Shown piece after piece: positions 4,901 through 56,722 of a DNA stretch of 64,000 nt. Each line of letters opens with the position of its first letter. The stretch's first letter is position 1. The position numbers and the translations under genes were made by a program. The notes below the pieces were generated by a model. The model had not been told where the DNA came from. It saw nothing but the letters and a program-made list of their open reading frames with translations, and made no database searches. The stretch is from Halarcobacter sp. (GTDB lineage: Bacteria; Campylobacterota; Campylobacteria; Campylobacterales; Arcobacteraceae), in assembly GCA_048571215.1 (NCBI GenBank), contig CP182352.1, positions 1,536,001-1,600,000 on the forward strand, written 5' to 3'.

Positions 4901-6903
4901 ATTGATGTATAAACAACCTCTTTCATCCTATCATGAGAAAAACAACATAATGGGTCAATAGTATTCTTTAGCTGACTAAATACAAGCCACTCTTTTTCTA
5001 CTGCTTCATCTAAGAGAGTTTCAAAAATTACTTTATTATCATAAATTCTTTCTAATAAAATTTTTGAAAATTCATTACCTATACACGAAGCAATTTTCAA
5101 TAAATATTGAAGCTCATTAGAAAATAGTTTTATTTGCTTAAACAATATATCAAATACATTATCACTTATTTGCATATTTTCTATTCTTTCTAAATTACAA
5201 AACCATTTTAATCTATCAAAATCAAAGTAAACTGCATTTTCAACTTGTAATTCTTTTAGATATTGTTTTACAAAAAGAGCATTCCCTCGAGTTTTATTAA
5301 AAATAATTCTACTTACTTCATCAATCTCTTCTATTTCCATAGAGTTTGAAATAAACTTTTTAATAGAATCTTTAGTCATAGCCTCGATTTTTAAAAAATT
5401 AACATTTATATCAATTGAATTTAATTTCTTTAATAAAATATTAAAAGGATGGGTAAGTGTTACCTCATTTTCTCTATGTGTTGTAATTATCAATACATTT
5501 TTTAAATTTATTATTAATTTTTCTATTAATTTTAAAGTAACAAAATCTATCCATTGCACATCATCAAAATATATGCAAAGAGGTTTATCATCTTTGGAAA
5601 ATAGTTGTAAAAAACGGATTAATACAGAATCAAATTGGGCTTTATAGTCACTATCTAAACTAATATTATAACTATCTTTTGCTCCAACTATATACTCTAA
5701 TTCAGGAATAATTGAAAAAAGAAGAACAACTTTTTCTTTTAATTCATCTTCAATCTTTTTTTTCCAAAGTGTTATACTTGTTTTATCTTTAGTAATAATC
5801 TGTTTTGTTAAATTTCGTAATGCCAAATATAAAATCTCATAGGAACTATTTTGTTTAAACTCATCAAGTTTAACTTTAACTATATAACTAAAAGTGTTTT
5901 TATTTTTATCTAACATAAAATTAGTAAATGTGGATTTACCAATCCCTGAATCTCCATAAATAGAGATGAAAGATGATTTATTGTCTTTCAATTGCATCAA
6001 ATAATCATCAAATATCTTAAACTCTTCCTCTCTTCCAAAAAGTTCATTTAAATGATTTAATTCCAAAATATTACGCATACTATCTAATTCAAACTCATTC
6101 AAACAATTATTATCAAAAACTCTTATTAAATCCATAACAACTGATACTATGTTACTATAACGATTTTTTTGATCTTTTGCTATCATCTTATCAATAATAA
6201 AAGAGACACTCTTAGGGATATTTTTATTTATTAAACATACACTTGGCAACTCTTTTGTGACAACAGCATAAGGGATTGAAGATTCATTTATTATTTCATA
6301 TAAGGCTTTACCTGTCAATAGATAATAAAATACCATCCCCAAACTATATATATCACTAGTAAAATTTATACCATCACTAACACGCCCTGTCTGTTCTGGA
6401 GATTGATATATATTATGAACATCTAATTCATAAGAAAAATCACTATATTCTGATTTAAATGAAGCAGCTCCAAATCCTGCTAATTTGACATTGTAATTAT
6501 CGTTTATGAGGATTGTTTCTGGGCTAATAGTAGTATGTAAAATATTATTACTATGCAAAGTATATATTGCTTTAGATAAAGAGATTGCAAGGTGAAAAAA
6601 TCTTTCAAAAGGTAATAAATCATTTTTATTAACAAACTCTTCTAAAGTTGAACCTTCAAAATATTTTCTAATCAAATATATCTTATCATCAATTTTAGAT
6701 AATGATTCAACTTCAACTATATTTTCATGTTTGCATTGATTTAAGATAGAATATTCATTTTGAAGTTTTTTTTCACTTCTTAAAAGATTATTTTTTTCAC
6801 TTTTGAGAATTATCTTTTGATTATTTTTATCATATGCAATATATAAGTTAGAATTCGTTGTACTATTAAACTTTGGAAGTTTGTTAAATCTCTTTATTTG
6901 CAT
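1939..6903 (-). CDS. Multidomain signalling protein: degenerate Ser/Thr kinase + STAND-type AAA ATPase + helical repeats + GAF + GGDEF diguanylate cyclase
   Basis: Kinase-like YQSPEQTGR and SDIYSLG; Walker A GDSGIGKS; Walker B IYFDDVQW; GAF (SVLCAPI...IYLEN); DVDFFKNYND, RASD I-site, RYGGEEF. Confidence 0.85.
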   Translation of the reverse strand: MQIKRFNKLPKFNSTTNSNLYIAYDKNNQKIILKSEKNNLLRSEKKLQNEYSILNQCKHENIVEVESLSKIDDKIYLIRKYFEGSTLEEFVNKNDLLPFERFFHLAISLSKAIYTLHSNNILHTTISPETILINDNYNVKLAGFGAASFKSEYSDFSYELDVHNIYQSPEQTGRVSDGINFTSDIYSLGMVFYYLLTGKALYEIINESSIPYAVVTKELPSVCLINKNIPKSVSFIIDKMIAKDQKNRYSNIVSVVMDLIRVFDNNCLNEFELDSMRNILELNHLNELFGREEEFKIFDDYLMQLKDNKSSFISIYGDSGIGKSTFTNFMLDKNKNTFSYIVKVKLDEFKQNSSYEILYLALRNLTKQIITKDKTSITLWKKKIEDELKEKVVLLFSIIPELEYIVGAKDSYNISLDSDYKAQFDSVLIRFLQLFSKDDKPLCIYFDDVQWIDFVTLKLIEKLIINLKNVLIITTHRENEVTLTHPFNILLKKLNSIDINVNFLKIEAMTKDSIKKFISNSMEIEEIDEVSRIIFNKTRGNALFVKQYLKELQVENAVYFDFDRLKWFCNLERIENMQISDNVFDILFKQIKLFSNELQYLLKIASCIGNEFSKILLERIYDNKVIFETLLDEAVEKEWLVFSQLKNTIDPLCCFSHDRMKEVVYTSMEDEEKQKIHLKIAQTLYLMENKDNLILCINNFNLALSKLSDIQKNDVFDLNIEACLYSKRNGDFANALNYIKNAMEIIEQPSNYINILKLRAECEHLCHNNKEALYYYNFALEKANTIEEKGLIYELIINFYTDCTKFKEAYEIGRKAVLLFDMELPKEFNKFSLIKNFLVLKYKLKSYKVEQLLEIKEASDEKIKLLIRILSALLKVSYQIKPELSVEISMKLVDLCLKEGITSESVVGFMVFGVIFQGAVLSNHTIGNEYAQLCFKMVDKFNNTTQHAEVQFVCGYFAISWKHPSSYTESLWEDAYNNGIEVGDWFHSACAAAGIIQSMFMRGVNLDFILEKIEYFEVMLKSLGTVEQLGAILSVKQAILNLKNQTNSENSFSDKLFDEELYVNDLKEYKSPHFALFYYLNKMITLYFHKKYKEALDISVEGERFISSAKGMLHHTEYKFYEALIYAKLINNKKTFSNIINLKKIESIQKKFKAWAKSSPENFLAREKILLGEIYRIKNKFDLSIKVFEDALEIVNIYGQKNLEIIINNIISEMYKNKLQRKVTILYANDAKISLEKWIYNKNAQINDCFDKKNNDSFNIQTLTKSAEIIVQERHLSELLKKLIQLIIENASAQSGALLLKNDNEFLIQAQSFVDKEEIYVLQAEKIDDAKSIVKSVINYVINSGETLVLDNLQDNTIFNEDDDVLNRGVKSVLCAPIKLSGELKGIIYLENNLISSVFTYEKVELLKHLSGQIAISIENAQIYYKLEEKVKERTRDLDFKNEELADQNEILLDQNNKISQLNKEVLNENEERKKVELKLQKAIEKLDLLATTDSLTSLKNRRSFDEYLQRAFFQAQRDKKPLSLLICDVDFFKNYNDFYGHQKGDTCLMKVAEILMKSINRASDFVARYGGEEFAIILPDTDKMGALKVANEIHYNLSKCKIIHEKSSVSEYITISIGVSVSNQIDNCDVELLINTADKALYKAKELGRNQTI

Positions 6904-8841: not shown

Positions 8842-9606
8842 ATGGAAGCTAATAAAAAAATTTGGATAGTAGGTGGAAGTTCTGGTATTGGTTTAGAGCT
8901 TGTAAAACAATGTTTAGAAAAAGACTACTTAGTTATTGCAAGTTCTAGAAATGCAACAAAAACAAAAGAGCTTTTGGATTTAAAAAATGATTATCCCAAA
9001 ACCATCTCTTTTGTTGATATGGATGTAAATAATGAAAGTTCAATTTTAAATGGTATTTCTGATGCTTGGAATTGTTATGATGGGATTGATATCTGGTTTT
9101 ACAATGCGGGAGCTTATGAGATAATGTCCTTAGATGAATGGGATTATGATAAGTTTGAACAAATGAATAGCGTTAACTACTTGGGTGTTGTTAAGATTAT
9201 GACAAAACTCTTACCCCTTTATAAAAACAACAATATTCACACAAGATGGATTTGGAATTGTAGTATATCAAGCTATTTTGGACTACCGCAAGGTGGTGGT
9301 TATTCTGCTCCAAAAGCTGCCCTTGTAAATCTTGCTGAATCAATTCAGCCAGAACTTGATAAAAACAATATCAAACTTCAAATTATTAATCATGGCTTTG
9401 TGAAAACTAGATTAACTGAAAAAAATAAATTTGAGATGCCTCAAATTATGAGTCCAGAATTTACTGCAAAAAAGATTTTGGAAGGTATAGAAACCTCATC
9501 ATCTTTTGAGATACGATTTCCCTACAAATTATCTTTATTTCTTAGAATTTTAAAATTTTTACCATATAAGTTTTCATTAAAACTTACTAAAAAGTTAGTT
9601 CAATGA
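8842..9606 (+). CDS. SDR family oxidoreductase
   Basis: GGSSGIG, NAG, YSAPK; ATG at 8842 follows an AAGG RBS (the ORF-track start at 8722 is probably too early). Confidence 0.85.
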   Translation: MEANKKIWIVGGSSGIGLELVKQCLEKDYLVIASSRNATKTKELLDLKNDYPKTISFVDMDVNNESSILNGISDAWNCYDGIDIWFYNAGAYEIMSLDEWDYDKFEQMNSVNYLGVVKIMTKLLPLYKNNNIHTRWIWNCSISSYFGLPQGGGYSAPKAALVNLAESIQPELDKNNIKLQIINHGFVKTRLTEKNKFEMPQIMSPEFTAKKILEGIETSSSFEIRFPYKLSLFLRILKFLPYKFSLKLTKKLVQ

Positions 9607-10021
9607 ATACACAAGAATATAAAGATTTTTTTGAAAACTTATCAAAAGATACTCCAATTGAAGAGTATGAAAATATTTTTTCAATAAAAGCAAAATTTGA
9701 AGACCCTTTTCACAAAGTAGAAGGGGTTCAAGAGATTTATAATGTATTTAAAATGATGTATAAGAAGTTGGATTCACCAATTTTTAAAGTTAAAGAGATA
9801 GTTGAAAATTCAAATATCGCATATTTTAAGTGGGATTTTTACTTTTACTTTAAAAACAAAACTAAAAAACAAAGTTTTGAAGGAGTTAGTAGAATAGAAT
9901 TTGATAAAGAGGGAAAAGTTGTTTCCCATGTGGACTATTGGGATAGCGCCAAAACCTATATGAGAAAATTCCATTTTTATCAACACTATTTAGTTTTTTG
10001 AAAAATAGAATTAAAGAGTAA
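9603..10021 (+). CDS. SnoaL/NTF2-like protein with a 1-nt frameshift near the 3' end
   Basis: FEDPF and SHVDYWD motifs; adding one A at 9951-9954 gives the tail NLYEKIPFLSTLFSFLKNRIKE* ending at 10021. Confidence 0.75.
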
Positions 10022-10023
10022 AT

Positions 10024-11295
10024 ATGAGAAGTGATATCTTAGATAAAAAACTTGTAGTTTACTACAGTTTATTAGCAGTCCCTTTAGCAATCATAGGATT
10101 ACCTTTATACATATATCTACCAACATTTTATACATCAACTGTGGGTATAGATATCACTACTGTAGGTATTTTAATTTTTATTGCAAGATTAACAGATGTT
10201 ATAAGTGATCCAATCTTTGGCTATTTAAGTGATGAAAGTGTTAGAAGATACAACTCTAGAAAACCTCTAATAATCTTAGGCTCATTTATTTTAGTATTTA
10301 GTTTTTATTTAATTATAAATCCAAATGAATCATTTTCAAAAAGTTGGCTTTTGGTATTTTCTATACTCATATATATGGCTTGGAGTATGATTAATATACC
10401 CTATCTAACTTGGAGTTCAGAGATAAGTAAAAACTACAATCATAAAACAGTATTAAATAGTTCTAGGGAACTTTTTACTATATTAGGTGTTATTATAGCT
10501 TTAATAGTTCCTACCCTTTTAGAAGTCTCTAATGAACCGCAAAATACACTAAATGTTTTATTTATCTTATTTTTACTTATCTTTGTACCCTCTGTTTTTA
10601 TAATACTAAAAAAAATAAAAATACAGAAACCAAAAATCAATCAAACTTTCAATATAGGTGGATTAAGGAAGATATATAAAAATATGCCTGATATAATATA
10701 TTTGGATTTATCCTATTTTATTAATAACTTAGCTAATGCTCTTCCTGCTACTTTATTTTTATTGTTTATTGAGCATGTAATTGAAAAAAAAGAATATAGT
10801 GGAGTTATTTTAATTATCTATTTTTTTTCAGGGCTTATAGCACTACCTTTTTGGAACTACCTTTCATCTAAAATAGGAAAAAAAACCACTTGGGTAATAT
10901 CTATATTATTAGCTTCAAGTGCTTTTATATTTGTTTTAATGCTAAAAGCTAATGATATAGAGCTATTTATTGTTATAAGTATAATCTCTGGCTTATCTTT
11001 GGGTGCGGATATGGCTTTACCAACTTCAATGAAAGCTGATTTAGTACAAAAAAGTGAAAAGATTCAAAATAATAGTTCTGGGCTTCTATTTGGTATTTGG
11101 ACAATGATAACAAAATTTTCTTTGGCATTTGCAATTGCCCTTGGTTTTATAATACTTGGTTTCTTTGATTTTGATTCTAATGAACCAAATACCCAATCAC
11201 TATTTGTACTAACACTACTTTATGGTTTAGCACCAGTTATTTTAAAATTTCTAAGTCTGTTGTTATTATATAGATACCAAGATCATAATAGATAA
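10024..11295 (+). CDS. MFS transporter (GPH/MelB-like)
   Basis: About 12 TM segments; ARLTDVISDPIFGYLSD. Confidence 0.85.
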   Translation: MRSDILDKKLVVYYSLLAVPLAIIGLPLYIYLPTFYTSTVGIDITTVGILIFIARLTDVISDPIFGYLSDESVRRYNSRKPLIILGSFILVFSFYLIINPNESFSKSWLLVFSILIYMAWSMINIPYLTWSSEISKNYNHKTVLNSSRELFTILGVIIALIVPTLLEVSNEPQNTLNVLFILFLLIFVPSVFIILKKIKIQKPKINQTFNIGGLRKIYKNMPDIIYLDLSYFINNLANALPATLFLLFIEHVIEKKEYSGVILIIYFFSGLIALPFWNYLSSKIGKKTTWVISILLASSAFIFVLMLKANDIELFIVISIISGLSLGADMALPTSMKADLVQKSEKIQNNSSGLLFGIWTMITKFSLAFAIALGFIILGFFDFDSNEPNTQSLFVLTLLYGLAPVILKFLSLLLLYRYQDHNR

Positions 11296-42203: not shown

Positions 42204-42770
42204 TTAAGTATCTAATACCTTCTTTATCAAATATGCACTATGTAATCTTTCAATCAATGTAAATTGATTATTAATAGGAGAATGTATTTTATTTTCGAAC
42301 AGTTTTATCTTTTCTAAGCCTACATTTCCATTTGTATAAATTAAAATAGGTATATTTTCATCAACACTTTTCAATAACTTAAACCATTCTTCTAATGTTT
42401 TATCATCTTCTGCAAATAAAATAATTATAGAAAAGTTATTTAATTTAATTTTTTCATTACAATTATTTATGTTCTTCATATTTCTAAATTTAGAAAATAT
42501 AGCCATATTATTAATTTTATTTTTATTATCATTACAAATTAAAATCTTACTTTCTCTAAAATCTTTAATATTTTTTATATCATTTAAATGCTCTAAAATT
42601 TCATTTCTATATCCATCAAACATTGAAGATAATTTATCTTTAATATTAGCATTAAAATAATCAGAAGTTTTTTTATCACATATAGTCTTAATAAGAAAAT
42701 ATATTAATACACCTAAGAATCCAATAATCAAGGCTAAAACTACTTTTGATATCAAACTTTCAAATTCCAT
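42204..42770 (-). CDS. CRISPR-associated membrane protein: N-terminal TM helix + C-terminal Rossmannoid/REC-like domain (Cam2/NARF-like candidate)
   Basis: TM VVLALIIGFLGVLIYFLI; beta-strand pattern KILIC / IIILF / ILIYT; starts 2 nt after the HEPN ORF. Confidence 0.55.
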   Translation of the reverse strand: MEFESLISKVVLALIIGFLGVLIYFLIKTICDKKTSDYFNANIKDKLSSMFDGYRNEILEHLNDIKNIKDFRESKILICNDNKNKINNMAIFSKFRNMKNINNCNEKIKLNNFSIIILFAEDDKTLEEWFKLLKSVDENIPILIYTNGNVGLEKIKLFENKIHSPINNQFTLIERLHSAYLIKKVLDT

Positions 42771-42772
42771 TT

Positions 42773-43832
42773 TTATTTTCCTCTTTTTCCATTAGATTTT
42801 TTTCTCTCAATAAAATAACTTGAATAATCATAAGACTCAATTGAATTATCAATTTTATGAAGGATAGAATTTATCTGAGTATAAATACTTTCTAAATCTT
42901 TTATTTCATCCTTCACAATAACTCTATTATGAGCTATTGCATTTCTTATCTTGGATAGTTTTTTCCACTTCACATCAAATAAATTTTGTTTATTTTCTAA
43001 TAAATTGCAAAAATATAATTCCCAATTTGTTTTAGGTAAAAACTTTTCTAAATCATCTATACAAGTTAATTTTCTCTCTAAGTATCTATTAATCAACTCT
43101 TTTTTTTCTTCTTTCGTTAATCTCTCATATGGTATAAACAAAAAATCCCTTATTTCTTTAAAGTCTACATAATACAAAATATCTCCACACTTGTAATCTA
43201 AATTATTATTTTTTCTTTTAACTCCATTTTTAATTTCTGTGGGAATAGTTTTGTCATACCAATTTGCACCCATAAAACGATACATTACCTTTGTTAAAAC
43301 TTTTCGCATCATAAAGCTTTGGATAATATTCATTACATATATATGCCTCATATGAATTAGATAGAACTAAGGGCTTATTTTTAGTTTCATCCATAATTAC
43401 TTTTTCTAGATACTCTTTTATATTTTCAAATAAACTAATTTTTTTTATACTATAAGGTGTATTCTTATAAGATATTTCCGAATCATCAACTTTTGGTTCA
43501 TTTTCATTTGTGCCAGTAATGTCCATTTCTTCTTCATAGAATAAATCACATTTTTTTTCAATATTATCAAATGTAATGGAAAAAATGAATATTCCTTCTT
43601 TTAGCATTTTAAATTGATAATTAAACTTTATTTCTTCATCATCATTAATAAAAAAATATTTACCATCTTTATTTATTTCTATAGATATATCTATTTCTTT
43701 TCCATCAATTTCAAATCTACTAATACTTTCCAAATTTCCTAAAATAATATGATTAAGAAAAAAATCTTCTTCTTTTTTGATTTTTGAAATAGCATTAACA
43801 TCAATTAAATATTCTAATTCGTAATTATTCAT
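42773..43832 (-). pseudogene. HEPN (Swt1/ApeA-like) ribonuclease gene split into two overlapping ORFs (43254-43832, 42773-43351)
   Basis: RxxxxH motif RNAIAH; YPKLY in ORF1 joins MRKVL...GANW in ORF2 near 43310; starts 2 nt after csm5. Confidence 0.65.
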
Positions 43833-43834
43833 AA

Positions 43835-44935
43835 CTATTCTTCTATCTCACACAATACCCATCCAAAAGGTAGTAAGGTATCAATACTATCTTCATTCTC
43901 TCCAAAAAGCCATGTAGTTGTTTCTTCTTCTAAGTTTTCCCAAATATTTTTCTTTCGTTTAGGACCGCCACCACTAACTTTTACTTTTATATTTCTTAAA
44001 CCATCTATTGTTACAGTTCTTGCTCCACTATGTTTTCCAATCCGTAATAAAAATTGATTTTTATTTTTAAACTCAAAGTTTAAATACTTTTCATAAAAAT
44101 CTTCTCTAAAATAATCAATTATAAAATCATATTCTAAAGAATCTTTATATAAATTTTTTTGTCTAAACATAGAATCAAATAATTCATAATAATGATCATT
44201 GCATGATTTTATTATCTTTTCAATTGTTATTTGCTCTTTAGAATTATAATCTTTAATTTGTAAAGATGTTTCAAATTCAGATTTTTCACATATAACTTCA
44301 ATTTTTGTTGATGGTCCTTGATTGTCATCTTCAAATCTCTCTTTATTTAAAGAAAAACCTATAAGAGAGGAACTATTTAGTATTTTTGTATCAGATATAG
44401 AAATATTTTTAAAAATACTTTCACTTGGCATTTGAAAAGTTTCTTTCAATTTTGAGTAGTTACTATTTTTGTAAATATATTCTTGATATGCAGTTGAGAT
44501 TGAGCCTTTGATACTACTTCCTGTAATATATGGATTACCAGTTATTTCATCTTTTATTGTTTTTTGAATTTGAAATTGGTTTATTACAGGTTTTTTTATT
44601 CCTGAGCCTTCAAATTTAGATATTATACCTATTCTCCTATTATACTCTTTTTCGATACCCTGGGTAACTTTCACTTTTAAGGTAAAAATATTTTTTACTA
44701 TATCTTTTCGTTTTTTTATAAATTTATTTATAGAAGATAATGCTAAGTTATCTTCTCTTGTTACTAATTCTTCAAATTTTGTTTTATCTTCTTTTGATAA
44801 ACTTTCAAAAAAACTAAATTCATCAAATTCATAAAGGAAACCATTATCTATAACGAAGTTTGTAGGTTCATATGATTCTCCTATGCCAATATGCATAGGA
44901 GTTAAAAGAGTCATTTTTAATTTATAAGTCTTCAT
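43835..44935 (-). CDS. csm5: Type III-A RAMP protein Csm5
   Basis: LTPMHIG, PYITGSSIKG, LRIGKHSG, PFGW. Confidence 0.85.
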   Translation of the reverse strand: MKTYKLKMTLLTPMHIGIGESYEPTNFVIDNGFLYEFDEFSFFESLSKEDKTKFEELVTREDNLALSSINKFIKKRKDIVKNIFTLKVKVTQGIEKEYNRRIGIISKFEGSGIKKPVINQFQIQKTIKDEITGNPYITGSSIKGSISTAYQEYIYKNSNYSKLKETFQMPSESIFKNISISDTKILNSSSLIGFSLNKERFEDDNQGPSTKIEVICEKSEFETSLQIKDYNSKEQITIEKIIKSCNDHYYELFDSMFRQKNLYKDSLEYDFIIDYFREDFYEKYLNFEFKNKNQFLLRIGKHSGARTVTIDGLRNIKVKVSGGGPKRKKNIWENLEEETTTWLFGENEDSIDTLLPFGWVLCEIEE

Positions 44936-45831
44936 TTTATTTCCTTTAAAGGAAAGAGTATAGAATACCCTTGATGTATAGCTTTTTCAAATGATGATAT
45001 ACCTTTAATAGCTTTACCATCATAAAATCTCTCTTTAGTGAATTTATATTTAATCACTGTTGAGTTTTTTGCTAAAAGTATAGGTTTTTTAAATGGATTA
45101 TCATTATCTACTTGGCTGGAGTTTTTACCAAATTTTGTTAAAGGAGAATAATATAATTCTTCACACTCTAAATTTTCCAATGAAATAGAAGATAATGTCA
45201 TATACGTTGTTGTTTCATTTTTTAAACTTATTTCTTCAAAATCTTCTTTTTGAAATATAAACCTACCTTTTCCTATAGAAGTTTTTTTGCCATAACCAAA
45301 CTCTGATATAAACTCCATACACTCTAATAATTTTTCTTTTTTAAATTGTTTTGATAATAAAAAATATATATCAAATTCAAAATCTTTTATTGGATATTCT
45401 TCTATACCAAAAGGTGAGAATCTATCTTTTTCGGTCCTAAAAGCAAGATAATTTAATGAGTTTTTCATAACATTTATTTTTTTATTTAAATCAACTCTTC
45501 CCTCTATATTATTGATATTTTTAGCATTTATATAATTTCCATTTTCTAAATCTTTTATTTTCAGCCACAATTTTTTTGAATTATTTTTCTTTTCTTTACT
45601 ATTTTCTTTTAAAAATTTCATAGGCATATTTGGCTTTGGAAGATAACCTTTAGGGAAGCCATCTGAAACAATCAAAAAGGGATTTTTATCATATTCTAAA
45701 AGTAATTCTTCTAACTTATCTTCACCATACTTATTTTTAATTGCCCAACATATTTGACCAAATAGAGTATCTCCTTGCAAAGATGTTGCAAAATTAGAAA
45801 TAGGCTTTATAGTAAGTTTATAAAGTTTCAT
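44932..45831 (-). CDS. csm4: Type III-A Cas5-group protein Csm4
   Basis: GDTLFGQICW, VSDGFP, GYGKKTSIGKG; likely start MKLYKL at 45831. Confidence 0.85.
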   Translation of the reverse strand: MKLYKLTIKPISNFATSLQGDTLFGQICWAIKNKYGEDKLEELLLEYDKNPFLIVSDGFPKGYLPKPNMPMKFLKENSKEKKNNSKKLWLKIKDLENGNYINAKNINNIEGRVDLNKKINVMKNSLNYLAFRTEKDRFSPFGIEEYPIKDFEFDIYFLLSKQFKKEKLLECMEFISEFGYGKKTSIGKGRFIFQKEDFEEISLKNETTTYMTLSSISLENLECEELYYSPLTKFGKNSSQVDNDNPFKKPILLAKNSTVIKYKFTKERFYDGKAIKGISSFEKAIHQGYSILFPLKEIK

Positions 45832-45833
45832 CA

Positions 45834-46511
45834 CTATTCCCATTTATCTTTATTACTAAAACTCACTCTTCCATAACCTCTTGTACCGTTTCCACCTAAA
45901 TAATCATCTTCAATAAGTTCTAAACCTTTTTTCACTATATCTTTTAATTTATCTTGTTCATCGTCAAATGGTTTATCTTCAATAATTTTTAAAGAAATAA
46001 TATAATTAAACTTTACCCCCCTACATACTCTTTCAGTTTGTCTTGGATGTTTTGCTGTTCCATTTGTTCTATCTATTACATTTTCATATTTTGATTCGGT
46101 AAGATTTTTTATATCTTTTTGTTCAATAAGACTACAATCAGAAAAGCTAAGTCTTGTAACACCATAATTTTCTCTTTTTTCTTCAGAATTCGCATCTCCA
46201 AAAAGTTTTATTAGATTTACTGCTTTCTCTTTTTTTCCCTCTTTTTCAAAAACTACATCAGAAAAATATTTTGAAGAAAAAGGTTTCCCTTTTTCCTTAT
46301 CATCTCTTCCAACATTAACCAATCCAAAATGCCATTCTAGTAAACTTCTCATCTTACCTTTTATACTACTTCCAGGGACATAAGGTTTATCAGTATTTAT
46401 ATCTTTTATAACACTATTACTAACACCTCCAATTTTCATAACATCATCACCAGCACCAATATGTAAACCTGTTAATACTTCTAACTCTCCAACTAATTTT
46501 AATATTTTCAT
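45834..46511 (-). CDS. csm3: Type III-A Cas7 backbone protein Csm3 (catalytic Asp apparently replaced by Ser)
   Basis: TGLHIG, PYVPGSSIKGKMRSLLE, ENVIDR, YLGGNGTRGYG; IGGVSNSVIKD; likely start at 46511. Confidence 0.9.
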   Translation of the reverse strand: MKILKLVGELEVLTGLHIGAGDDVMKIGGVSNSVIKDINTDKPYVPGSSIKGKMRSLLEWHFGLVNVGRDDKEKGKPFSSKYFSDVVFEKEGKKEKAVNLIKLFGDANSEEKRENYGVTRLSFSDCSLIEQKDIKNLTESKYENVIDRTNGTAKHPRQTERVCRGVKFNYIISLKIIEDKPFDDEQDKLKDIVKKGLELIEDDYLGGNGTRGYGRVSFSNKDKWE

Positions 46512-46512
46512 T

Positions 46513-46875
46513 TTAATCTCTCCCCTCAAAAAAACCTAGCACAGCTTCAAAAAAAAGTTTAAAACAAAGCAAAGTATCTTTTATATTTTCTTTTGTAATT
46601 AAACTTACACATTGACTCATCATATCCTGAAATTCTTTTGATACAACACCCCTACTTCTTGCATATGATACTTTTGAATTTAACATTTTTACAAAAGGAA
46701 TAATATTTTCAACATCTTCATTATTTTTATTCAACTTATTTTCTAAATCCATTATATATTCATAAAAATTTCTAAGTTGTGTTTTTTTAGTTTTACCTAT
46801 AGCTAAAGCCCATTCTTGCGCAACTTTATTAAAAAGTTCTTCATTTTTTGTATAATCTAATACTATATTTTGCAT
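46513..46875 (-). CDS. csm2: Type III-A small subunit Csm2 (Cas11)
   Basis: TQLRNFY, KVSYARSR, FFEAVLGF; 120 aa between cas10 and csm3. Confidence 0.88.
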   Translation of the reverse strand: MQNIVLDYTKNEELFNKVAQEWALAIGKTKKTQLRNFYEYIMDLENKLNKNNEDVENIIPFVKMLNSKVSYARSRGVVSKEFQDMMSQCVSLITKENIKDTLLCFKLFFEAVLGFFEGRD

Positions 46876-48444
46876 CTAGTCTCTCCCTTTATAAATAAAT
46901 TCACTTATTACCATCTTTGAAGCTTTTGGATTTTTCTCTATTTGTGTATCTAAGACTTTATATAAATCCTCATAACTTTCTTTTTTCATATTTCTTCTAA
47001 AACTATAATTTAGTTTTGATTTCCACATAGTAGATAAAACATCACCCTCTTTAACTTTTATTGACATTTCTATTAATTCTAAAAGAGAATAAAAAAATGC
47101 ACTTTTTTTATCTTCTTCTTCGATTTTACTAAGCTCATTTTCTAATACTTTTTTTACATCAATATACTCTTGCCACTTTACAGTTTCATCAAAAAGTGTA
47201 ATAGAGTCTTTATCTTGGTTTTCTTTTGATTTTTCAAGTAACTCTTCAATCTTAGAAGACATATAAGATATTGGTACATTTTCTTTACTTAGCATAATTG
47301 CTACACTTAATGTAAGGTTTTCGTTTGAAAAATTTCTAAATTCTTTATATATTTTTTCTGAAAAATCTATTATTTCATTCCATGCACCTATAATAAAAAA
47401 GTCATCTCCACCTGTAAAAACTACATAAGTATTTTTATAGTTTTCTTCTAAAAATTCTGGTACTTTTTGAGTGAAAAAGTTGTTTAAAGTATAAGAAAAA
47501 TAAATATAGTTTTCATAACTATCAAAAGCATTACTCTTATCTTTAATAAATTCTCCTAAACTATCAACATCACCTTTTATTACAGCTAAGTTTTCTGCAC
47601 CTTCTGTATTTTTTGCTAAATCATCAAAACTATAAGCCACACCTTTTTCGTTTGATTTTACATAAGATTTAATTTTCCAAAATTCTTTTAGGCTTTTAAA
47701 TTCATCATTTTCATTTTCTGAAAATGAAACATGGTAGTTATTGAAAATCTTTATACCACTATCATCATTTGAAATTTTCATATAATTTTTACTTGCTAAA
47801 TTTTCACCTAACTTTATAAAATCGTCACAAATTTTACAAACTTCTTTTTCCTCTTGTATTCTTCTTATTCCACAGGTTTTACATAGTGTTTGATTAGTTG
47901 GAACATCAACATAATCCAAAACTGTATTTTGATTTTGTAAATTAAACTTATTAAACTTTGCAAACTCCATCTTTTCGTTTAGTTTTTCTCTGATTTCTCT
48001 AAATTCTTTAGGATTAATTAGATATGATTTTAAAATATCCATGGATACAAGCTTTACCCCTGCTAGGGCAAAAAAGTTTTCTATAAAGTAATTATCTACT
48101 TCTTTTTGAATCTCTTCAATTTTATTTTTGTCAACTCTTGGAGATAGTATTTCTATTTTTCCAGCCTCACTAAAAATAATATTTTCTTCCTCTAGTCCTA
48201 AAACTTTTAGTATATATAGGGATAATACTTTTGTAAATATTTGTACATAAGCTGATTTTGCTCTTAATACTTTATAAGCTTTTGATGATGGTACATTTTC
48301 AAAAATAAAGTTTTGTATTCCATAAAAATCTGCACAAATGATAGTCAACTCATTGTCTTTTAAAATATCATCTATTTTTAAAATATCTTTTTTAAATAAT
48401 TCACTATATTTTTTATTAAATACATTTTTAACTTCTATCATCAA
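46876..48444 (-). CDS. cas10: Cas10/Csm1 without HD domain; Palm cyclase motifs intact
   Basis: Begins almost at DFYGIQNFIF; zinc finger CKTC/CKIC; KGDVDSLG; VFTGGDDFF; only 522 aa. Confidence 0.9.
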   Translation of the reverse strand: MMIEVKNVFNKKYSELFKKDILKIDDILKDNELTIICADFYGIQNFIFENVPSSKAYKVLRAKSAYVQIFTKVLSLYILKVLGLEEENIIFSEAGKIEILSPRVDKNKIEEIQKEVDNYFIENFFALAGVKLVSMDILKSYLINPKEFREIREKLNEKMEFAKFNKFNLQNQNTVLDYVDVPTNQTLCKTCGIRRIQEEKEVCKICDDFIKLGENLASKNYMKISNDDSGIKIFNNYHVSFSENENDEFKSLKEFWKIKSYVKSNEKGVAYSFDDLAKNTEGAENLAVIKGDVDSLGEFIKDKSNAFDSYENYIYFSYTLNNFFTQKVPEFLEENYKNTYVVFTGGDDFFIIGAWNEIIDFSEKIYKEFRNFSNENLTLSVAIMLSKENVPISYMSSKIEELLEKSKENQDKDSITLFDETVKWQEYIDVKKVLENELSKIEEEDKKSAFFYSLLELIEMSIKVKEGDVLSTMWKSKLNYSFRRNMKKESYEDLYKVLDTQIEKNPKASKMVISEFIYKGRD

Positions 48445-49262
48445 ATCTCCTTAACCTCTATTTTCCCAAGTCCAAAAACTGTTTGTTTTCCTACATTTAA
48501 TAGTTCTGCTATTTTTAGTATTTTATAGTTTTGTTCACTTAAATCTTTTACAACTAAACTTCCCATTACACCATCAAATTTCATTTTTGTTTTTTGGGGA
48601 CTACTATATCTTGTAAGATTTTTTTTATAGAGGTTTTTATTTACTACTTTATACTCTTTTGTTACTTCTAGTTTTGGCGCATTTGGATAGATGTATTCAT
48701 ATCTTTTTCTACTTGAAAGCAAGATATCAAAAAGGTCTAAACTATCATCATATATAAGTTTATTTTCTTTTTTTATTCTTATGGGTGTTAGTATATTTAT
48801 AGCTACGTCTTTTTTTGTTTCACTCTCTTTATACTCTTTTTGTGTAATATTTTTTAAATCAAAGGTTTCGTTTTCATAAACCAAAATATCATTTACATAT
48901 ATTTTAAACTCATTAAAATACTTATTCTCTTTTCCAAGACCAATAGAAGTTAATAACTTATGAAAACTTGAAAGTATAAAAGGAAGTTGTTCACATACCT
49001 CATCAAAAAGATAAAAAGAAAAATCATAAGATTTGTTGCCAAGAGATATATCAAATCTATATTTATGATAATTATCTTCCAAATAAAATGTGTAAAAAAG
49101 ACAATTATCTTTTGCAAAACAATTTTCACATTCGTATGTTGGATTTATGCAAACCACTTTTTTAAGAGCATACCCCAAAGCCCCACGAAGCTGACTTCCA
49201 GTAAAATAAGGAGGCATATACTCTTCATATATTTTTATATCTATTTTGTAATATTTCATCAA
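48441..49262 (-). CDS. cas6: Cas6 pre-crRNA endoribonuclease (Cys-cluster type)
   Basis: GSQLRGALG, C-x5-C-x2-C-x5-C cluster, C-terminal G-loop VGKQTVFGLG. Confidence 0.88.
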   Translation of the reverse strand: MMKYYKIDIKIYEEYMPPYFTGSQLRGALGYALKKVVCINPTYECENCFAKDNCLFYTFYLEDNYHKYRFDISLGNKSYDFSFYLFDEVCEQLPFILSSFHKLLTSIGLGKENKYFNEFKIYVNDILVYENETFDLKNITQKEYKESETKKDVAINILTPIRIKKENKLIYDDSLDLFDILLSSRKRYEYIYPNAPKLEVTKEYKVVNKNLYKKNLTRYSSPQKTKMKFDGVMGSLVVKDLSEQNYKILKIAELLNVGKQTVFGLGKIEVKEI

Positions 49263-49478
49263 ATAACTTTTAAATATTGTATTTTCTTTTATTATATTAT
49301 AAATTATATTAATCTTTTAAAATAACTTTTTCCAACTAAATTTAAAAAAATCTATGATAAACTACCATAATATCAAAGTTCTTTAAAAACCTATTGTTTT
49401 TAATAAAATGCTTGGAAAAATCCAATCAAATCCCATAAAAAGGGGAAATTAAGATTTTAAAAGCACCTATTTACTTTG
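49263..49478 (+). promoter_or_regulatory. AT-rich CRISPR leader and divergent cas promoter region
   Basis: Non-coding, between cas6 and the first perfect repeat; contains the inverted pair TTTTTCCAA...TTGGAAAAA. Confidence 0.65.
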
Positions 49479-51343
49479 GTAGAGACCTGACATATAAGGG
49501 ATTAAAACGACTATCAAGTGCTTTTATATTTTTATTATCTACTGTAGAGACCTGACATATAAGGGATTAAAACTTAAAAACAGACATCTATATTCTCCTT
49601 ATTGTTTGTGTAGAGACCTGACATATAAGGGATTAAAACTTACTAGAGCTGTAAATTTTACAGAGTTACCAGAGTGTAGAGACCTGACATATAAGGGATT
49701 AAAACGAGTTATTATGAATTTTTATTGATTTTGTTAAAAAGTAGAGACCTGACATATAAGGGATTAAAACTATTATTACTTAATATTTTATTTTATAACA
49801 ATTTTTCTGTAGAGACCTGACATATAAGGGATTAAAACTACTATTTAAAGCCATGATATCCCCCTTACTTTTCTGTAGAGACCTGACATATAAGGGATTA
49901 AAACGTAGATAACTAAACATTCTATTATTTTATCAACTTGTAGAGACCTGACATATAAGGGATTAAAACCTGGGTGAAAAACTTGGAGTGGTGGGAAGAA
50001 ATATGTAGAGACCTGACATATAAGGGATTAAAACAAATAAGATAATCCCTCTGCAATAGTATTAAATCCGTAGAGACCTGACATATAAGGGATTAAAACT
50101 GAAAAAGAGAAACACTAGCAGAATGAATATAATTACGTAGAGACCTGACATATAAGGGATTAAAACATTTGTAATTAATCCATATCTTGTAATGCTCCTT
50201 GTAGAGACCTGACATATAAGGGATTAAAACGCATCTTTGTATATGTCTTTCCATATCCAAAAAGCTAGTAGAGACCTGACATATAAGGGATTAAAACATA
50301 ATCACCAATTAGCTTTAAATCTTCTTTTTTATAGGTAGAGACCTGACATATAAGGGATTAAAACCAATTTTACTTAGTTCAAAAAGACTGTAATCTTCAT
50401 TGTAGAGACCTGACATATAAGGGATTAAAACTCCACTAAGTCTTTTTTGGAAGTCTTTAAGTTAAGAGTAGAGACCTGACATATAAGGGATTAAAACATG
50501 ACACTTGAAACTTTTTTTAACACAAACGAAACAGTAGAGACCTGACATATAAGGGATTAAAACTTAAAAGCGTGAAGTTGATCTATTAGTTCTGTACCGT
50601 AGAGACCTGACATATAAGGGATTAAAACTATAGTTCCACATCTTTTGTCTAATACTTATTTTGTAGAGACCTGACATATAAGGGATTAAAACATTAAAGG
50701 TTGAGCTGTATCATAGTTTACTCCTAGTGTAGAGACCTGACATATAAGGGATTAAAACTAGCATATGCTATTTTGTTTTCGACACTAGATAAGTAGAGAC
50801 CTGACATATAAGGGATTAAAACTTTACATAAGTTTCATTTAGTGTTAAATATGCTTCTGTAGAGACCTGACATATAAGGGATTAAAACTTTGAAAATGCA
50901 AAAGGTCTTTTATGTTCCGCATCATTGTAGAGACCTGACATATAAGGGATTAAAATTGAAATAAAATTTATCAAACCAAATAATAAACCTAGTAGAGACC
51001 TGACATATAAGGGATTAAAATGCAGATACAACACAAAAACCATTATCTTTGAATGCTGTAGAGACCTGACATATAAGGGATTTAAAATACCTATGCCTAA
51101 TTGTTGTCTACCTTGTACTTGTAGTAGAGACCTGACATATAAGGGATTAAAATTTCCAAATATGGTGAACAGTAGGTGCAATATCATGTAGAGACCTGAC
51201 ATATAAGGGATTAAAATAATTTTACTGTTGCACTTACACTAGTTGCAGCCATTGTAGAGACCTGACATATAAGGGATTAAAATAATGATGTAAATACTCG
51301 TAATCAGGACAATCAAACTGTAGAGACCTGACATATAAGGGAT
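49479..51343 (+). CRISPR. CRISPR array: 29 repeats (GTAGAGACCTGACATATAAGGGATTAAAAC, 30 bp) and 28 spacers of about 34-38 bp
   Basis: Repeats counted directly; the 3' ATTAAAAC handle and degeneration at the right end set the + orientation. Confidence 0.97.
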
Positions 51344-51673
51344 GTTTTTAATAAATAAGGAATAACGAATAATGAATAATCTTCTTCAACTTTTCATTTT
51401 TCACTTTTCATTATTCATTTATATTGACCTGACATATAAGGAATGTTTTTAATGAATAATGAATAATCTTCTTTAATTTTTCATTTTTCACTTTTCATTA
51501 TTCATTTATATTGACCTGCCATATAAGGGATTAAAACGATACACACATATCAAATTGTTTCTCTTCAAAGCTAGTAGAGACCTGACATATAAGGGATGTT
51601 TTTAATGAATAAGGAATAACGAATAATGAATAATCTTCTTCAATTTTTCATTTTTCACTTTTCATTATTCATT
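51344..51673 (+). repeat. Degenerate CRISPR trailer: partial repeats, one extra spacer and three heptamer-based inverted-repeat blocks
   Basis: Partial repeats at 51426, 51513 and 51574; spacer 51538-51573; AATGAAT-type and TTTTCAT-type heptamer arms in three blocks. Confidence 0.85.
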
Positions 51674-51678
51674 ACTAT

Positions 51679-54721: not shown

Positions 54722-55096
54722 ATGATAATAAAAAACTTAAGAATAGAAAATGGTTGGTCACAAGAAAAATTAGCTGAAATCACTGGATTGAGTTTAAGAA
54801 CTATACAAAGAGTAGAAAAAGAGGACAAAGCTAGCTTGGAATCTCTAAATCTTTTAGCTAATGCTTTTAGCTTAGATATTAAACAACTACAAGATAAATT
54901 AAAAAATAAACCTTTTAAAACTGAAACTGAAACTAAAAATAATCATAAGAAAATAATCACAATTTTTATTGCTGTAAACTTACTACTTATTACTATAAAT
55001 CTTTTAACAAACTCTAGTCACTTATGGTTTATCTATCCATTATTAGGATGGGGAATTCCACTTTTTTATAAAATATATATAAAAGAAAAGCTTTAA
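54722..55096 (+). CDS. XRE HTH protein with C-terminal 2TM domain
   Basis: WSQEKLAEITGLSLRTIQRVE; WFIYPLLGWG. Confidence 0.8.
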   Translation: MIIKNLRIENGWSQEKLAEITGLSLRTIQRVEKEDKASLESLNLLANAFSLDIKQLQDKLKNKPFKTETETKNNHKKIITIFIAVNLLLITINLLTNSSHLWFIYPLLGWGIPLFYKIYIKEKL

Positions 55097-56337
55097 AATC
55101 TACTATTTTTTATCACTTTTTCTATCTTTTTTTTATCCACTTTAAGATTTTTTGCTTCTTGTTTAAATCTACTTATAAAATACTCTTTTATGTTTTTTAC
55201 TAACTCCTCTATCTCTTTGTCACTTCCTATTGAAAACATCTTTGAAACAGCTTTTATATCCTCTATACTAAAATCATCTCTTTTTCCATTTATACTCATT
55301 TGGTGTTTTGCTGTATAGTCATTGCCTTTATTATATGTGATATCATATAAAGGTGCAGTTTTCCAAACTCCTTTTTCATCCATCAAAAAAGAGAAGTTTT
55401 TTGTATGATCATCTTGATTACAAGTAATTACATTGTATAACATATGGATAAATGCACTCTCCAATTGCTGTCTATCTTTAGTAAGGTATTCAACTACTCT
55501 TAAATACTCTTCGTAAGAGTAAGAACCTGGTATATTAAAATTTGTATGAGTAAGCCCGCATAAAGAGTGCATATGTATTTTTTTATCTTCTATAATATCA
55601 AATCTTTTTACTAAAAGATGACTAAAATCTCTTTCGTGAAAAATCTCTACATCTGCTACGTTTAAATCAAGCTCTTTTGCTATTTTCATATAGATATACT
55701 CAACTTTTCCATAATCTGCTGGAACATAATCTTTTCCAACACCATCAAATTTTATAAGATAGTTCTCAAAACCTTTTTTAAAAGGTAGTCTTCCTGATAC
55801 TATTTCATTTGTAGTTTTATTCCATTGAATAACCGCTTTTGCTCTAGCTCCCCCTGCACTTCCTCCTGATGATATTAGTTCAGGAATTGCAACTGTAATA
55901 TCCCCTTTTATAATCTTTCTAGCATCATCAACCAAAGATTTTATCTCTAAAGATTCTTTTAAAATCTCTGTTGGTTCATTTGGAATATACTCCAAAGCTC
56001 CCATACCAGTTTTTCCTATATATGCTAACTTTTGTATTGATGATAATTCATACTCATTTATCCCTTTTTTTGCATAAAATCTTTTTATAACCTCATTTCC
56101 AAATTTATCAGGTAAAGAATCAAAAAATACTCCAGCTAAACCTTCAAAAAATCTATCATCACTATTGTTATAAACAGCAGTTGTCTCTAAAGGCAATTTT
56201 ATAGGGGATATCTCTAAACCACTATTTTTAAACTCATCTTCATATTCAAAATATATATTATCTTTCTCATCTAAAGATAAAAACCCAACTATTTGCCCAT
56301 AAAGTTGTACAATCAAAGAATCATTATTCGTTTTCAT
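55093..56337 (-). CDS. hipA: HipA family kinase toxin
   Basis: DSLPD-x-FG, GMGALEY, SAGGARAKA, KRFD, NQDDHTKNFSF, PLYD. Confidence 0.85.
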   Translation of the reverse strand: MKTNNDSLIVQLYGQIVGFLSLDEKDNIYFEYEDEFKNSGLEISPIKLPLETTAVYNNSDDRFFEGLAGVFFDSLPDKFGNEVIKRFYAKKGINEYELSSIQKLAYIGKTGMGALEYIPNEPTEILKESLEIKSLVDDARKIIKGDITVAIPELISSGGSAGGARAKAVIQWNKTTNEIVSGRLPFKKGFENYLIKFDGVGKDYVPADYGKVEYIYMKIAKELDLNVADVEIFHERDFSHLLVKRFDIIEDKKIHMHSLCGLTHTNFNIPGSYSYEEYLRVVEYLTKDRQQLESAFIHMLYNVITCNQDDHTKNFSFLMDEKGVWKTAPLYDITYNKGNDYTAKHQMSINGKRDDFSIEDIKAVSKMFSIGSDKEIEELVKNIKEYFISRFKQEAKNLKVDKKKIEKVIKNSRF

Positions 56338-56722
56338 TTTTTGCCTTTAACTTATCTAACAAAATTCCTATTCTTGTGGGTTTTGATTCATTTTTTGATT
56401 TAGAAGAATCTATTTTTTCTTTTTTGCTTGCTCTTTTTCTTTCAGGTTTTTTTATATTTTTGTTTAATACTTTTTCTTTTGGTGAAAAACTGTTTTTAAT
56501 AAATAGATTGTTTAACTCCATAGTTTTACCCAATGCTTTTGTTATATTAATAAAGTTTTCAAAACTTCCTTTGCCATTTTTTTCAAATATCTTATATGTA
56601 GATAAAGATAAACCTGATTTTAAAGCCATATCCTCTTGAGTAATATTTTGCCTTAATCTTTCATCTTTTATTTTATGTGCAAACTCTTTTGATATCTCTT
56701 GTGTAGTACTAAACTCATTCAT
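56324..56722 (-). CDS. HTH antitoxin (HipB-like)
   Basis: RQNITQEDMALKSGLSLSTY-x-x-FE; overlaps the hipA start. Confidence 0.8.
   Translation of the reverse strand: MNEFSTTQEISKEFAHKIKDERLRQNITQEDMALKSGLSLSTYKIFEKNGKGSFENFINITKALGKTMELNNLFIKNSFSPKEKVLNKNIKKPERKRASKKEKIDSSKSKNESKPTRIGILLDKLKAKNENE

Follow-up and report, generated by a model that had tools for sequence, protein, structure and literature searches.

We analyzed a 64,000-nucleotide (nt) stretch of the Halarcobacter sp. genome (contig CP182352.1, positions 1,536,001 to 1,600,000), here referred to as the window, which carries a type III-A CRISPR-Cas locus. Nine open reading frames (ORFs), all of them open, lie on the minus strand from position 49262 to 42204 in the order cas6, cas10, csm2, csm3, csm4, csm5, ORF7, ORF8, and ORF9. 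Apart from a longer overlap between ORF7 and ORF8 that is described below, neighboring ORFs in the ORF list overlap by 4 to 17 nt or are separated by gaps of 0 to 2 nt. An initial annotation of this DNA had proposed a tightly packed operon of eight genes; the packing is evident, and the count has to be raised to nine because ORF7 (43832-43254), between csm5 and the HEPN gene ORF8 (43351-42773), had been missed. A CRISPR array follows upstream of cas6, no cas1 or cas2 gene adjoins the locus, and the genes flanking it have housekeeping functions.

The Csm complex and its missing HD domain

The first six genes were identified by matching their products against Pfam, NCBIfam, and PADLOC models. 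Cas10/Csm1, Csm2, Csm3, Csm4, and Csm5 matched the type III-A equivalogs of NCBIfam, with Csm2 to Csm5 all scoring above the cut-offs, and the PADLOC assignments concurred for Cas6 and the Csm proteins. On the minus strand, cas6 (48441..49262; 273 amino acids [aa]) matched PF10040 (E value of 3.8e-10) and PADLOC Cas6 (1.9e-42), cas10/csm1 (46876..48444; 522 aa) matched TIGR02578 (2e-110) and PF22335 (2e-30), and csm2 (46513..46875; 120 aa) matched PF03750 (1.5e-15) and TIGR01870 (1.2e-15). These are followed by csm3 (45834..46529; 231 aa; TIGR02582, 1.4e-57), csm4 (44932..45843; 303 aa; TIGR01903, 2.7e-29; PADLOC Csm4, 1.2e-81), and csm5 (43835..44935; 366 aa; TIGR01899, 1.6e-10; PADLOC Csm5, 1.3e-28). 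The locus thereby shows the hallmarks of type III-A, namely, a Cas10 with a cyclase domain, Csm2 to Csm5 encoded in one operon, and Cas6 with an adjoining array.

The Cas10 protein covered only positions 225 to 750 of the 753 positions of TIGR02578, and its alignment with Cas10 of L. lactis (6xn3_A) spanned residues 243 to 700 of the latter. Because both alignments begin this far into their references, the HD domain is absent rather than mutated, and the overlap of cas6 with the start codon of cas10 leaves no space for an HD domain encoded as an ORF of its own. The Palm2 motifs GDVD (vikGDVDslG) and GGDD (ftGGDDffiigaw) aligned with those of 6xn3_A, and the Zn-finger cysteines are present. The initial description of a Cas10 that has lost its HD domain and kept its cyclase motifs is therefore upheld. 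A search with Cas10 as a single protein against genome contigs gave no match. According to the accessible part of a recent survey, the HD domain is present in 65% of III-A Cas10 proteins and III-A systems without it are common (Hoikkala et al. 2024, PMC11229360).

ORF9 encodes a putative membrane protein with a receiver-like fold

The last gene of the operon, ORF9 (42204..42770, minus strand), encodes a protein of 188 aa for which hydropathy and an AF2 model predict a transmembrane (TM) helix at the N terminus, followed by a long helix and, toward the C terminus, a (beta-alpha)5 domain resembling a receiver (REC) domain. The hydropathy profile contains one hydrophobic segment at residues 9 to 27, with a peak of 2.68. 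Modeling from the single sequence performed poorly (pLDDT of 50.5) and was replaced by a model based on an alignment of 15 family members (pLDDT of 85.8), in which the long N-terminal helix leads into the (beta-alpha)5 domain at residues 73 to 188. When this model was compared with 48,161 solved chains by VIA-align, the best 50 matches were nearly all receiver or other flavodoxin-like domains with Z scores of 10 to 12.2; the REC matches, among them AmiR, NtrX, CheY-like proteins, and 3lua, superimposed with an rmsd of 2.5 to 3.1 Å over 103 to 120 residues. Foldseek against the PDB returned only weak rows (E values of at least 1.4e-3), which pointed in the same direction, as did the Atlas structure rows. 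No CARF or SAVED chain appeared among the rows shown by either program, beyond which further families may match. At the sequence level, ORF9 matched no solved chain. In Pfam, NCBIfam, and PADLOC, no CARF, SAVED, NucC, or ring-nuclease model matched ORF7, ORF8, or ORF9 at an E value of ≤0.1, save for matches of ORF8 to the HEPN part of Csx1/Csm6, in keeping with the initial remark that no Csm6/Csx1, SAVED, NucC, or ring-nuclease gene is visible at the locus.

Phosphorylation is unlikely as the signal for ORF9, because the 15-member alignment has no invariant column, so that no phospho-acceptor Asp is conserved after strand 3, where the residues vary; because Pfam Response_reg does not match ORF9; and because the III-A operon contains no kinase gene. 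Three copies of ORF9 were modeled as a trimer with an ipSAE of 0.64 (median of three runs), whereas the best of three controls scored 0.00. At least 90% of the contacts agreed between runs, the partner pLDDT was at least 75, and the model passed the threshold of the program. When that threshold was calibrated, 20 of 30 proteins with structures of one-chain pairs exceeded it, as did 1 of 23 proteins with single-chain structures, counts that apply only roughly to ORF9, for which three copies and a custom alignment were used. The most conserved motif of the family, N-x2-F-T-L-I-E-R-L (residues 167 to 176), falls within the modeled subunit interface.

A protein of this kind is already in print as Cam2, which consists of a TM helix and a REC domain and was reported from 26 type III loci; the accessible text of that paper predicts that Cam2 senses the cyclic oligoadenylate cA3 and disturbs the membrane (Hoikkala et al. 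2024, NAR, PMC11229360). ORF9 has the corresponding features, i.e., a TM segment, a C-terminal domain of REC fold, and a place in type III loci with a cyclase-positive Cas10. The initial annotation had spoken of non-CARF effectors, and this stands for ORF9 as far as CARF and SAVED matches are concerned; the TM-REC type as such is not new, given Cam2 (PMC11229360, as far as accessible). The literature searched yielded no later study of Cam2 and none in which a Cam2-type protein was put to the test.

Distribution of ORF9-like genes

An exhaustive profile search among 1.84 billion proteins retrieved 14 representatives of the ORF9 family, and a word-index search gave nine matches, all of them either without a name or labeled hypothetical. 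ORF9 had no match on plasmids and the family none on viral contigs. Among the family members whose surrounding DNA was available, ORF9-like genes begin 0 to 5 nt after csm5 in four further HD-less III-A loci, those of genomes G544 (locus L083) and G317 (locus L032) and the loci L057 and L058 (L058 and G486 represent one record and count as a single locus). Together with the window, this makes five loci in two lineages. The Cas10 proteins of the four loci lack the HD domain, retain GGDD, and are 66 to 69% identical to that of the window. One lineage comprises L032, L057, and L058, with a DNA identity of 86 to 91%. In the other, blastn aligns G544 and the window colinearly with a DNA identity of 75%, first across cas6 to csm5 and then across ORF9. 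Between the two lineages, the ORF9 proteins share about 30% identity. All seven genes common to the window and G544 had dN/dS ratios of 0.19 to 0.36 (Nei-Gojobori method), which are rough values, as dS is high. The G544 operon is intact, is accompanied by at least 46 repeats, and has the ORF9-like gene as its sole ancillary gene. Neither a SAVED domain nor Csm6, searched with a profile built from local Csm6 proteins, was found in G544, G317, or G486.

G317 and G544 belong to the same genus. The G317 locus (L032, G317:C1:680000-699000) and that of G544 have their flanks, cas6, and cas10 in common at 83% DNA identity, and their csm2-csm5-ORF9 modules differ (Csm3 with Asp in the former and with Ser in the latter). 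The modules have thus been swapped at a single chromosomal position, which is flanked by a di-haem peroxidase gene and an SDR gene.

A further relative of ORF9 (37% identity over 166 aa) was found on the contig L055 in an operon of overlapping genes that also encode a CD-NTase (1.4e-73 to PADLOC Cyclase) and an E2 protein (5.3e-53). The operon is a short type II cyclic oligonucleotide-based antiphage signaling system (CBASS) with the ORF9 relative as its only candidate effector. The nearest solved relative of its cyclase is E. coli MS115-1 CdnC (E value of 1.4e-11). CdnC makes cA3, which can serve as a lead only. Collectively, the csm5-adjacent place of the family, the lack of a CARF or SAVED match, and the CBASS relative fit a putative reader of a nucleotide signal.

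Serine at the catalytic position of Csm3

The observation that a serine replaces the catalytic Asp of Csm3 was corroborated: Ser37 (GGVSNSVIKD) aligns with residue 32 of S. epidermidis Csm3, the catalytic Asp32 (7uzw_A). In the accessible part of a study of that protein, the D32A exchange abolished target RNA cleavage and led to more cyclic oligoadenylate being made (PMC6633199). Among 17 Campylobacterota relatives fetched around Cas10 matches, the equivalent position holds Asp in 15 cases and Asn in one. The closest locus, that of G544, has the identical Ser in a Csm3 that is 76 to 78% identical to that of the window, and Asp is retained in L032, L057, and L058. Because all seven genes shared with G544 have the low dN/dS ratios given above, the Ser variant is maintained and does not represent fresh damage. 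With the HD domain absent from Cas10 and Ser at the catalytic position of Csm3, the complex is probably unable to cleave either DNA or target RNA.

A competing explanation holds that the system is not confined to signaling and that Csm3 still cleaves target RNA by means of Ser37 itself or a nearby acidic residue, so that RNA cutting and signaling would go together as in ordinary HD-less type III systems. It draws on the fact that a single residue differs, with the catalytic loop otherwise (GLHIGAGDDVMKIGG) conserved with the Asp-bearing relatives, and on the purifying selection acting on Csm3 (dN/dS of 0.21). We nevertheless regard both this explanation and the combined activity that it pictures as rather unlikely. 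In S. epidermidis, cleavage is lost when the aligned residue is exchanged (D32A; PMC6633199, accessible part), and the neighboring DD pair is found in all Asp-bearing relatives, with the exception of one that has DE, and so does not represent a compensating change.

The ORF7-ORF8 insertion

Positions 42708..43847 (minus strand) of the window have no counterpart in the closest locus, as judged by blastn colinearity with L083 and the gene order there: the G544 locus contains 68 nt in place of 1,140 nt of the window and lacks ORF7 and ORF8. ORF7 (43254..43832) encodes an acidic orphan protein of 192 aa (pI of 4.6), which found no match in Pfam, NCBIfam, or PADLOC and no relative in 61 related genomes; its Atlas model (pLDDT of 0.35) shows no confident fold. 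ORF8 (42773..43351), likewise on the minus strand, encodes a basic protein of 192 aa (pI of 9.5), for which public gene callers place the start at Met27 (166 aa). It resembles a divergent HEPN protein with an R-x4-H motif (RNAIAH): it matched PF18731 HEPN_Swt1 below the cut-off (E value of 0.0026; 18.4 bits compared with 27.5), PADLOC PDC-M34B at 9.5e-8, and, weakly, the HEPN part of Csx1/Csm6 (E values of 4e-4 to 1.4e-3). In a scan of the genome with Pfam Csx1_HEPN and Cas_Csm6_HEPN, ORF8 was not matched. No relative of ORF8 was present in G544, G317, or G486. Because of this and because the pair is missing from the G544 locus, ORF7-ORF8 is a lineage-specific insertion of approximately 1.1 kb.

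The 3′ end of ORF7 overlaps ORF8 by 98 nt in another (+1) frame. An assembly error at this site was considered and rejected, given that the contigs of three of four sequencing runs were identical to the window over positions 42204-44000 and the fourth differed by three small indels outside the overlap; all four runs come from one study, which may be the source of the window DNA itself. We also considered a single frameshifted gene with a four-letter step at GGGT. The joined reading had no homologue in a word-index search and did not match a profile of eight local Csm6 proteins, which was silent across the genome as well. The PDC-M34B match covers ORF8 residues 3 to 67, including part of the stretch that overlaps ORF7. 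Since the joined reading destroys the match of the first ORF8 residues, the two genes are not joined at GGGT; a join further upstream may exist. The PDC-M34B lead itself was not productive: the family occurs in 19 of 401 genomes of the phylum, and those proteins gave no tblastn alignment to ORF7 or ORF8.

The pair is most likely a toxin-antitoxin-like or add-on RNase module. We rank this above another proposal, in which ORF7 is a new sensor domain, once fused to the HEPN RNase or now partnering it, and the two form a messenger-controlled analogue of Csm6. The proposal is prompted by location, as ORF7 and ORF8 sit where 7 of 17 related III-A loci carry CARF-HEPN genes after csm5 (eight such genes, two of them in L041), by the R-x4-H motif of ORF8 with its weak Csx1/Csm6 matches, and by the +1-frame overlap, which could be the scar of a former fusion. 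We consider it improbable all the same: ORF7 has neither relatives in the related genomes nor a confident fold, the joined reading is without a match, the profile of local Csm6 proteins does not recognize the pair, and the closest locus does without it. Furthermore, an acidic-basic pair also fits a toxin-antitoxin module, and a HEPN-MNT pair follows csm5 in locus L046. In L046 (genome G430, 9471-10446), csm5 is followed by an ORF of 80 aa and then by genes for a HEPN protein of 157 aa (RNRIAH), a minimal nucleotidyltransferase of 103 aa (PDC-S09), and a protein of 257 aa; the second and third of these four make up a HEPN-MNT pair within a III-A locus.

The initial annotation had assigned the reading of the messenger to both terminal genes. 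This can be kept in part, as ORF9 is the conserved partner after csm5 in five loci; the HEPN gene is not conserved, being absent from G544. ORF8 shows no link to the messenger and falls outside the conserved design.

Other CRISPR and signaling systems of the genome

The window belongs to the genome G000, which consists of one contig of 3.61 Mb and contains a complete type I-B locus (G000:C1:3244975-3253963, locus L054) with the genes cas6b-cas8b-cas7-cas5-cas3-cas4-cas1-cas2, in which a 270-aa Bro-N/PDC-S13 gene is inserted between cas3 and cas4 and which is followed by an array of at least 53 repeats. The I-B and III-A repeats are identical at 20 of 30 bases, and the I-B Cas1-Cas2-Cas4 proteins are a likely source of new III-A spacers.

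A SAVED effector does occur elsewhere in the genome, in a CBASS island adjoining a phage-type integrase (G000:C1:2210798-2213378; L053, 6798-9378). The CD-NTase of the island is divided between two overlapping ORFs, one of 245 aa that matches the first half of a PADLOC cyclase model and one of 292 aa that matches the second half of the same model; a frameshift may account for the division. The following gene (G000:C1:2212338-2213378) encodes a protein with a SAVED domain (E value of 1.7e-25) that PADLOC calls a 2TM SAVED effector. The sister genomes G544, G317, and G486 have no SAVED match. A scan of G000 with PF09651, PF09455, PF09659, and PF09670 gave nothing above the cut-offs; two of these models represent HEPN and not CARF, so the absence of CARF from the genome rests on few models. 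A homologue of the AAA_14 + DUF4143 ATPase genes that directly follow csm5 in two III-A loci of another genus (L047, 9631-10845; L048, 9954-11168; PADLOC PDC-S01, E value of ~1e-132) lies 2.4 kb upstream of the CBASS cyclase (L053, 3165-4415).

The island suggests another division of labor, in which ORF9 has an accessory role, for example as an anchor in the membrane or as a regulator, and the SAVED-2TM protein, the one candidate for such a task, acts in trans as the reader of what Cas10 makes. The island's own cyclase is split, the SAVED assignment is strong by both the E value and PADLOC, and in-trans signaling has been discussed for effector-less loci (Hoikkala et al., PMC11229360, accessible part). 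We hold this to be very unlikely, since the genomes G544, G317, and G486 all have the Csm operon with an ORF9-like gene and no SAVED domain was found in them, since the SAVED gene has a cyclase of its own and is located some 630 kb away beside an integrase, and since ORF9-like genes have been retained directly after csm5 in two divergent lineages.

CRISPR array and surroundings

The array (49479..51603, plus strand) contains 31 copies of a 30-nt repeat (GTAGAGACCTGACATATAAGGGATTAAAAC), separated by spacers of 34 to 38 nt. Repeats 1 to 22 are identical, and variant and degenerate copies lie at the 51.6-kb end, where one interval measures 158 nt. From the repeat, which ends in ATTAAAAC when read on the plus strand, and from the distal location of the degenerate copies, we infer that the array is transcribed on the plus strand, away from cas6. 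An AT-rich gap of 216 nt between the cas6 start and the first repeat (49263..49478) is the likely array leader and promoter region of the cas operon; on the minus strand, positions 49320-49291 of this gap resemble a promoter, with a weak match to the consensus, and the promoter and terminator scan was uninformative in such AT-rich DNA. The spacers had no match in phage records. Against the genome itself (at least 24 nt), the best spacer match was 27 nt with three mismatches, the low-complexity 158-nt interval aside. The far end of the array (51320-51678) includes a 105-nt direct duplication (51320-51424 and 51574-51678; 96% identical) and low-complexity DNA rich in AATGAATAA, with copies elsewhere in the genome.

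At some distance from the locus, the minus strand of the window encodes a 1654-aa protein that combines a Ser/Thr kinase, an AAA_16 ATPase, TPR repeats, a GAF domain, and a C-terminal GGDEF domain (1939-6903), as well as a HipBA-type toxin-antitoxin pair composed of a HipA-like kinase (414 aa) and an upstream HTH protein (132 aa; 55093-56722).

Discussion

We consider it fairly likely that the locus represents an HD-less type III-A system of a small Campylobacterota lineage, with a Cam2-like membrane protein as its conserved ancillary gene and a design confined to signaling. Comparison of the five loci and their relatives lends good support to such a signal-only design with a predicted non-CARF, Cam2-like reader. 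Cas6 would cut the array transcript and Csm2 to Csm5 would assemble with Cas10 on the CRISPR RNA, roles that are assigned by family membership only. Binding of a complementary transcript would activate the Palm/cyclase site (GGDD) of Cas10 to make a cyclic oligoadenylate, most likely cA3, and this messenger would bind the cytoplasmic receiver-like domains of oligomeric ORF9, modeled as a trimer. By analogy with Cam1 and Csx23, the single TM helices of ORF9 could then disturb the membrane and arrest the growth of the infected cell. As the complex itself would probably cut neither nucleic acid, it would also be without the usual cleavage-based off switch. New spacers would probably be supplied by the type I-B adaptation genes elsewhere in the genome, and ORF7 with ORF8 would be a later insertion of an acidic orphan and a basic HEPN protein.

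Several points weigh against this reading. All biochemical steps ascribed to ORF9 and to Cam2-like proteins are predictions, and the identity of ORF9 as a Cam2-like protein follows from architecture and context only. To our knowledge, no solved structure provides a precedent for a REC fold that binds a cyclic oligonucleotide. The ORF9 family is small, its link to CBASS consists of a single contig, and one member (L056) is a solitary gene flanked by ribD and purB on a 3.9-kb contig without any defense gene. The trimer model, even if it passes, is compatible with other stoichiometries as well, Ser37 of Csm3 might still permit some RNA cleavage, and the SAVED-2TM protein of the genome could also read the Cas10 product. 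Finally, the cas10 gene of the G317 locus (L032, 4604-7000) contains an in-frame TAG at codon 110 and cas6 is in two pieces there, with the downstream csm genes and the ORF9-like gene open despite these lesions. Some copies of the locus thus decay.

From such copies it could be argued that the window locus, too, is a decaying relic without a defense function and that the loss of the HD domain, the loss of the Csm3 Asp, and the ORF7/ORF8 overlap are stages of erosion. The lack of cas1 and cas2 at the locus and of any spacer match in phage records would be in line with this. Nevertheless, the nine ORFs are all open and the first 22 of 31 repeats are identical, the G544 operon is intact with the same Ser and a long array, all seven shared genes show the low dN/dS ratios given above, and the genome possesses type I-B adaptation genes next to an array whose repeat is related. 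We therefore find a relic highly improbable.

Part of the picture is already in print, namely, HD-less type III systems and a TM-REC candidate effector. What is new are the conserved natural Asp-to-Ser exchange in Csm3, the CBASS context of an ORF9 family member, a minimal test case from two genomes, and the ORF7-HEPN insertion. It is conceivable, if rather doubtful, that the REC domain, the most common signaling fold in bacteria, came to sense cyclic oligonucleotides as part of a single-pass membrane effector common to CBASS and type III systems, that the Csm complex of one lineage became a pure RNA sensor by abandoning the cleavage of both DNA and RNA, and that it acquired a second module in which the orphan ORF7 controls the HEPN RNase. 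In 2024, Cam2-type proteins were singled out as a priority, since they would add the receiver fold to the sensors of cyclic nucleotides. The loci of the window and G544 offer a minimal natural test case, with six Csm genes, one candidate effector of 183 to 188 aa, and no HD domain; no CARF was found in either with the queries used, and G544 is without a SAVED match, G000 having one in its CBASS island. As Csm3 lacks the catalytic Asp, signaling can be studied here without competing nuclease activities. The CBASS-linked relative on L055 provides independent comparative support for the idea that the ORF9 family reads a nucleotide. A Csm3 that is predicted to be naturally cleavage-dead and yet is under purifying selection bears on the question of how type III signaling is switched off without target cleavage or a ring nuclease, and such a Csm complex could serve as a scaffold for RNA detection.

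Among known systems, ORF9 is most readily compared with Cam2. As described in the accessible text, the two share an N-terminal TM helix and a C-terminal REC fold without a histidine kinase partner, an association with type III loci whose Cas10 has the cyclase and no HD domain, 3lua, the REC domain chosen for the overlay with Cam2, as a structural neighbor, and a plausible trimer model (PMC11229360). By contrast, the ORF9 family comprises only the 14 representatives, is linked to the Ser variant of Csm3, and has one member in a CBASS operon, whereas CBASS is not mentioned for Cam2 in the accessible part of that paper (PMC11229360). Cam1 (TM and CARF, cA4) and Csx23 (TM and a new cA4-binding fold) are type III membrane effectors that resemble ORF9 in being small, in combining an N-terminal TM segment with a cytoplasmic sensor domain, in lying beside type III genes, and in their proposed action on the membrane (PMC10808066, PMC11014256, as far as accessible). 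ORF9 differs from them in its soluble domain, which is a predicted receiver-like (beta-alpha)5 domain without a CARF model match or a sequence match to a solved chain. The laboratory mutant Csm3 D32A of the S. epidermidis Cas10-Csm complex is affected at the same residue as the window Csm3 (PMC6633199, accessible part); here, however, the Ser is natural, is common to two genera, and is coupled with the absence of the HD domain, and its effect is predicted.

ORF8 recalls the CARF-HEPN RNases Csm6 and Csx1 in its R-x4-H HEPN motif and in its position, where relatives carry these genes, but it has no CARF domain and does not match the Csm6 profile of the relatives. With HEPN-MNT toxin pairs, ORF7 and ORF8 have in common a basic HEPN protein, an acidic upstream partner, and overlapping genes; in contrast to such pairs, ORF7 is no MNT protein and matches nothing, and the 98-nt overlap is unusually long. 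The type III-B system of Vibrio metoecus reportedly does cleave target RNA. It is similar to the present locus in that its Cas10 is HD-less and that a messenger (cA3) and one effector shared with CBASS, NucC, carry immunity, as stated in the accessible part of the study (PMC8682760). There, a Cmr (III-B) complex acts together with a soluble DNA nuclease (PMC8682760), whereas here a Csm (III-A) complex, whose Csm3 lacks the catalytic Asp, is combined with a putative membrane protein.

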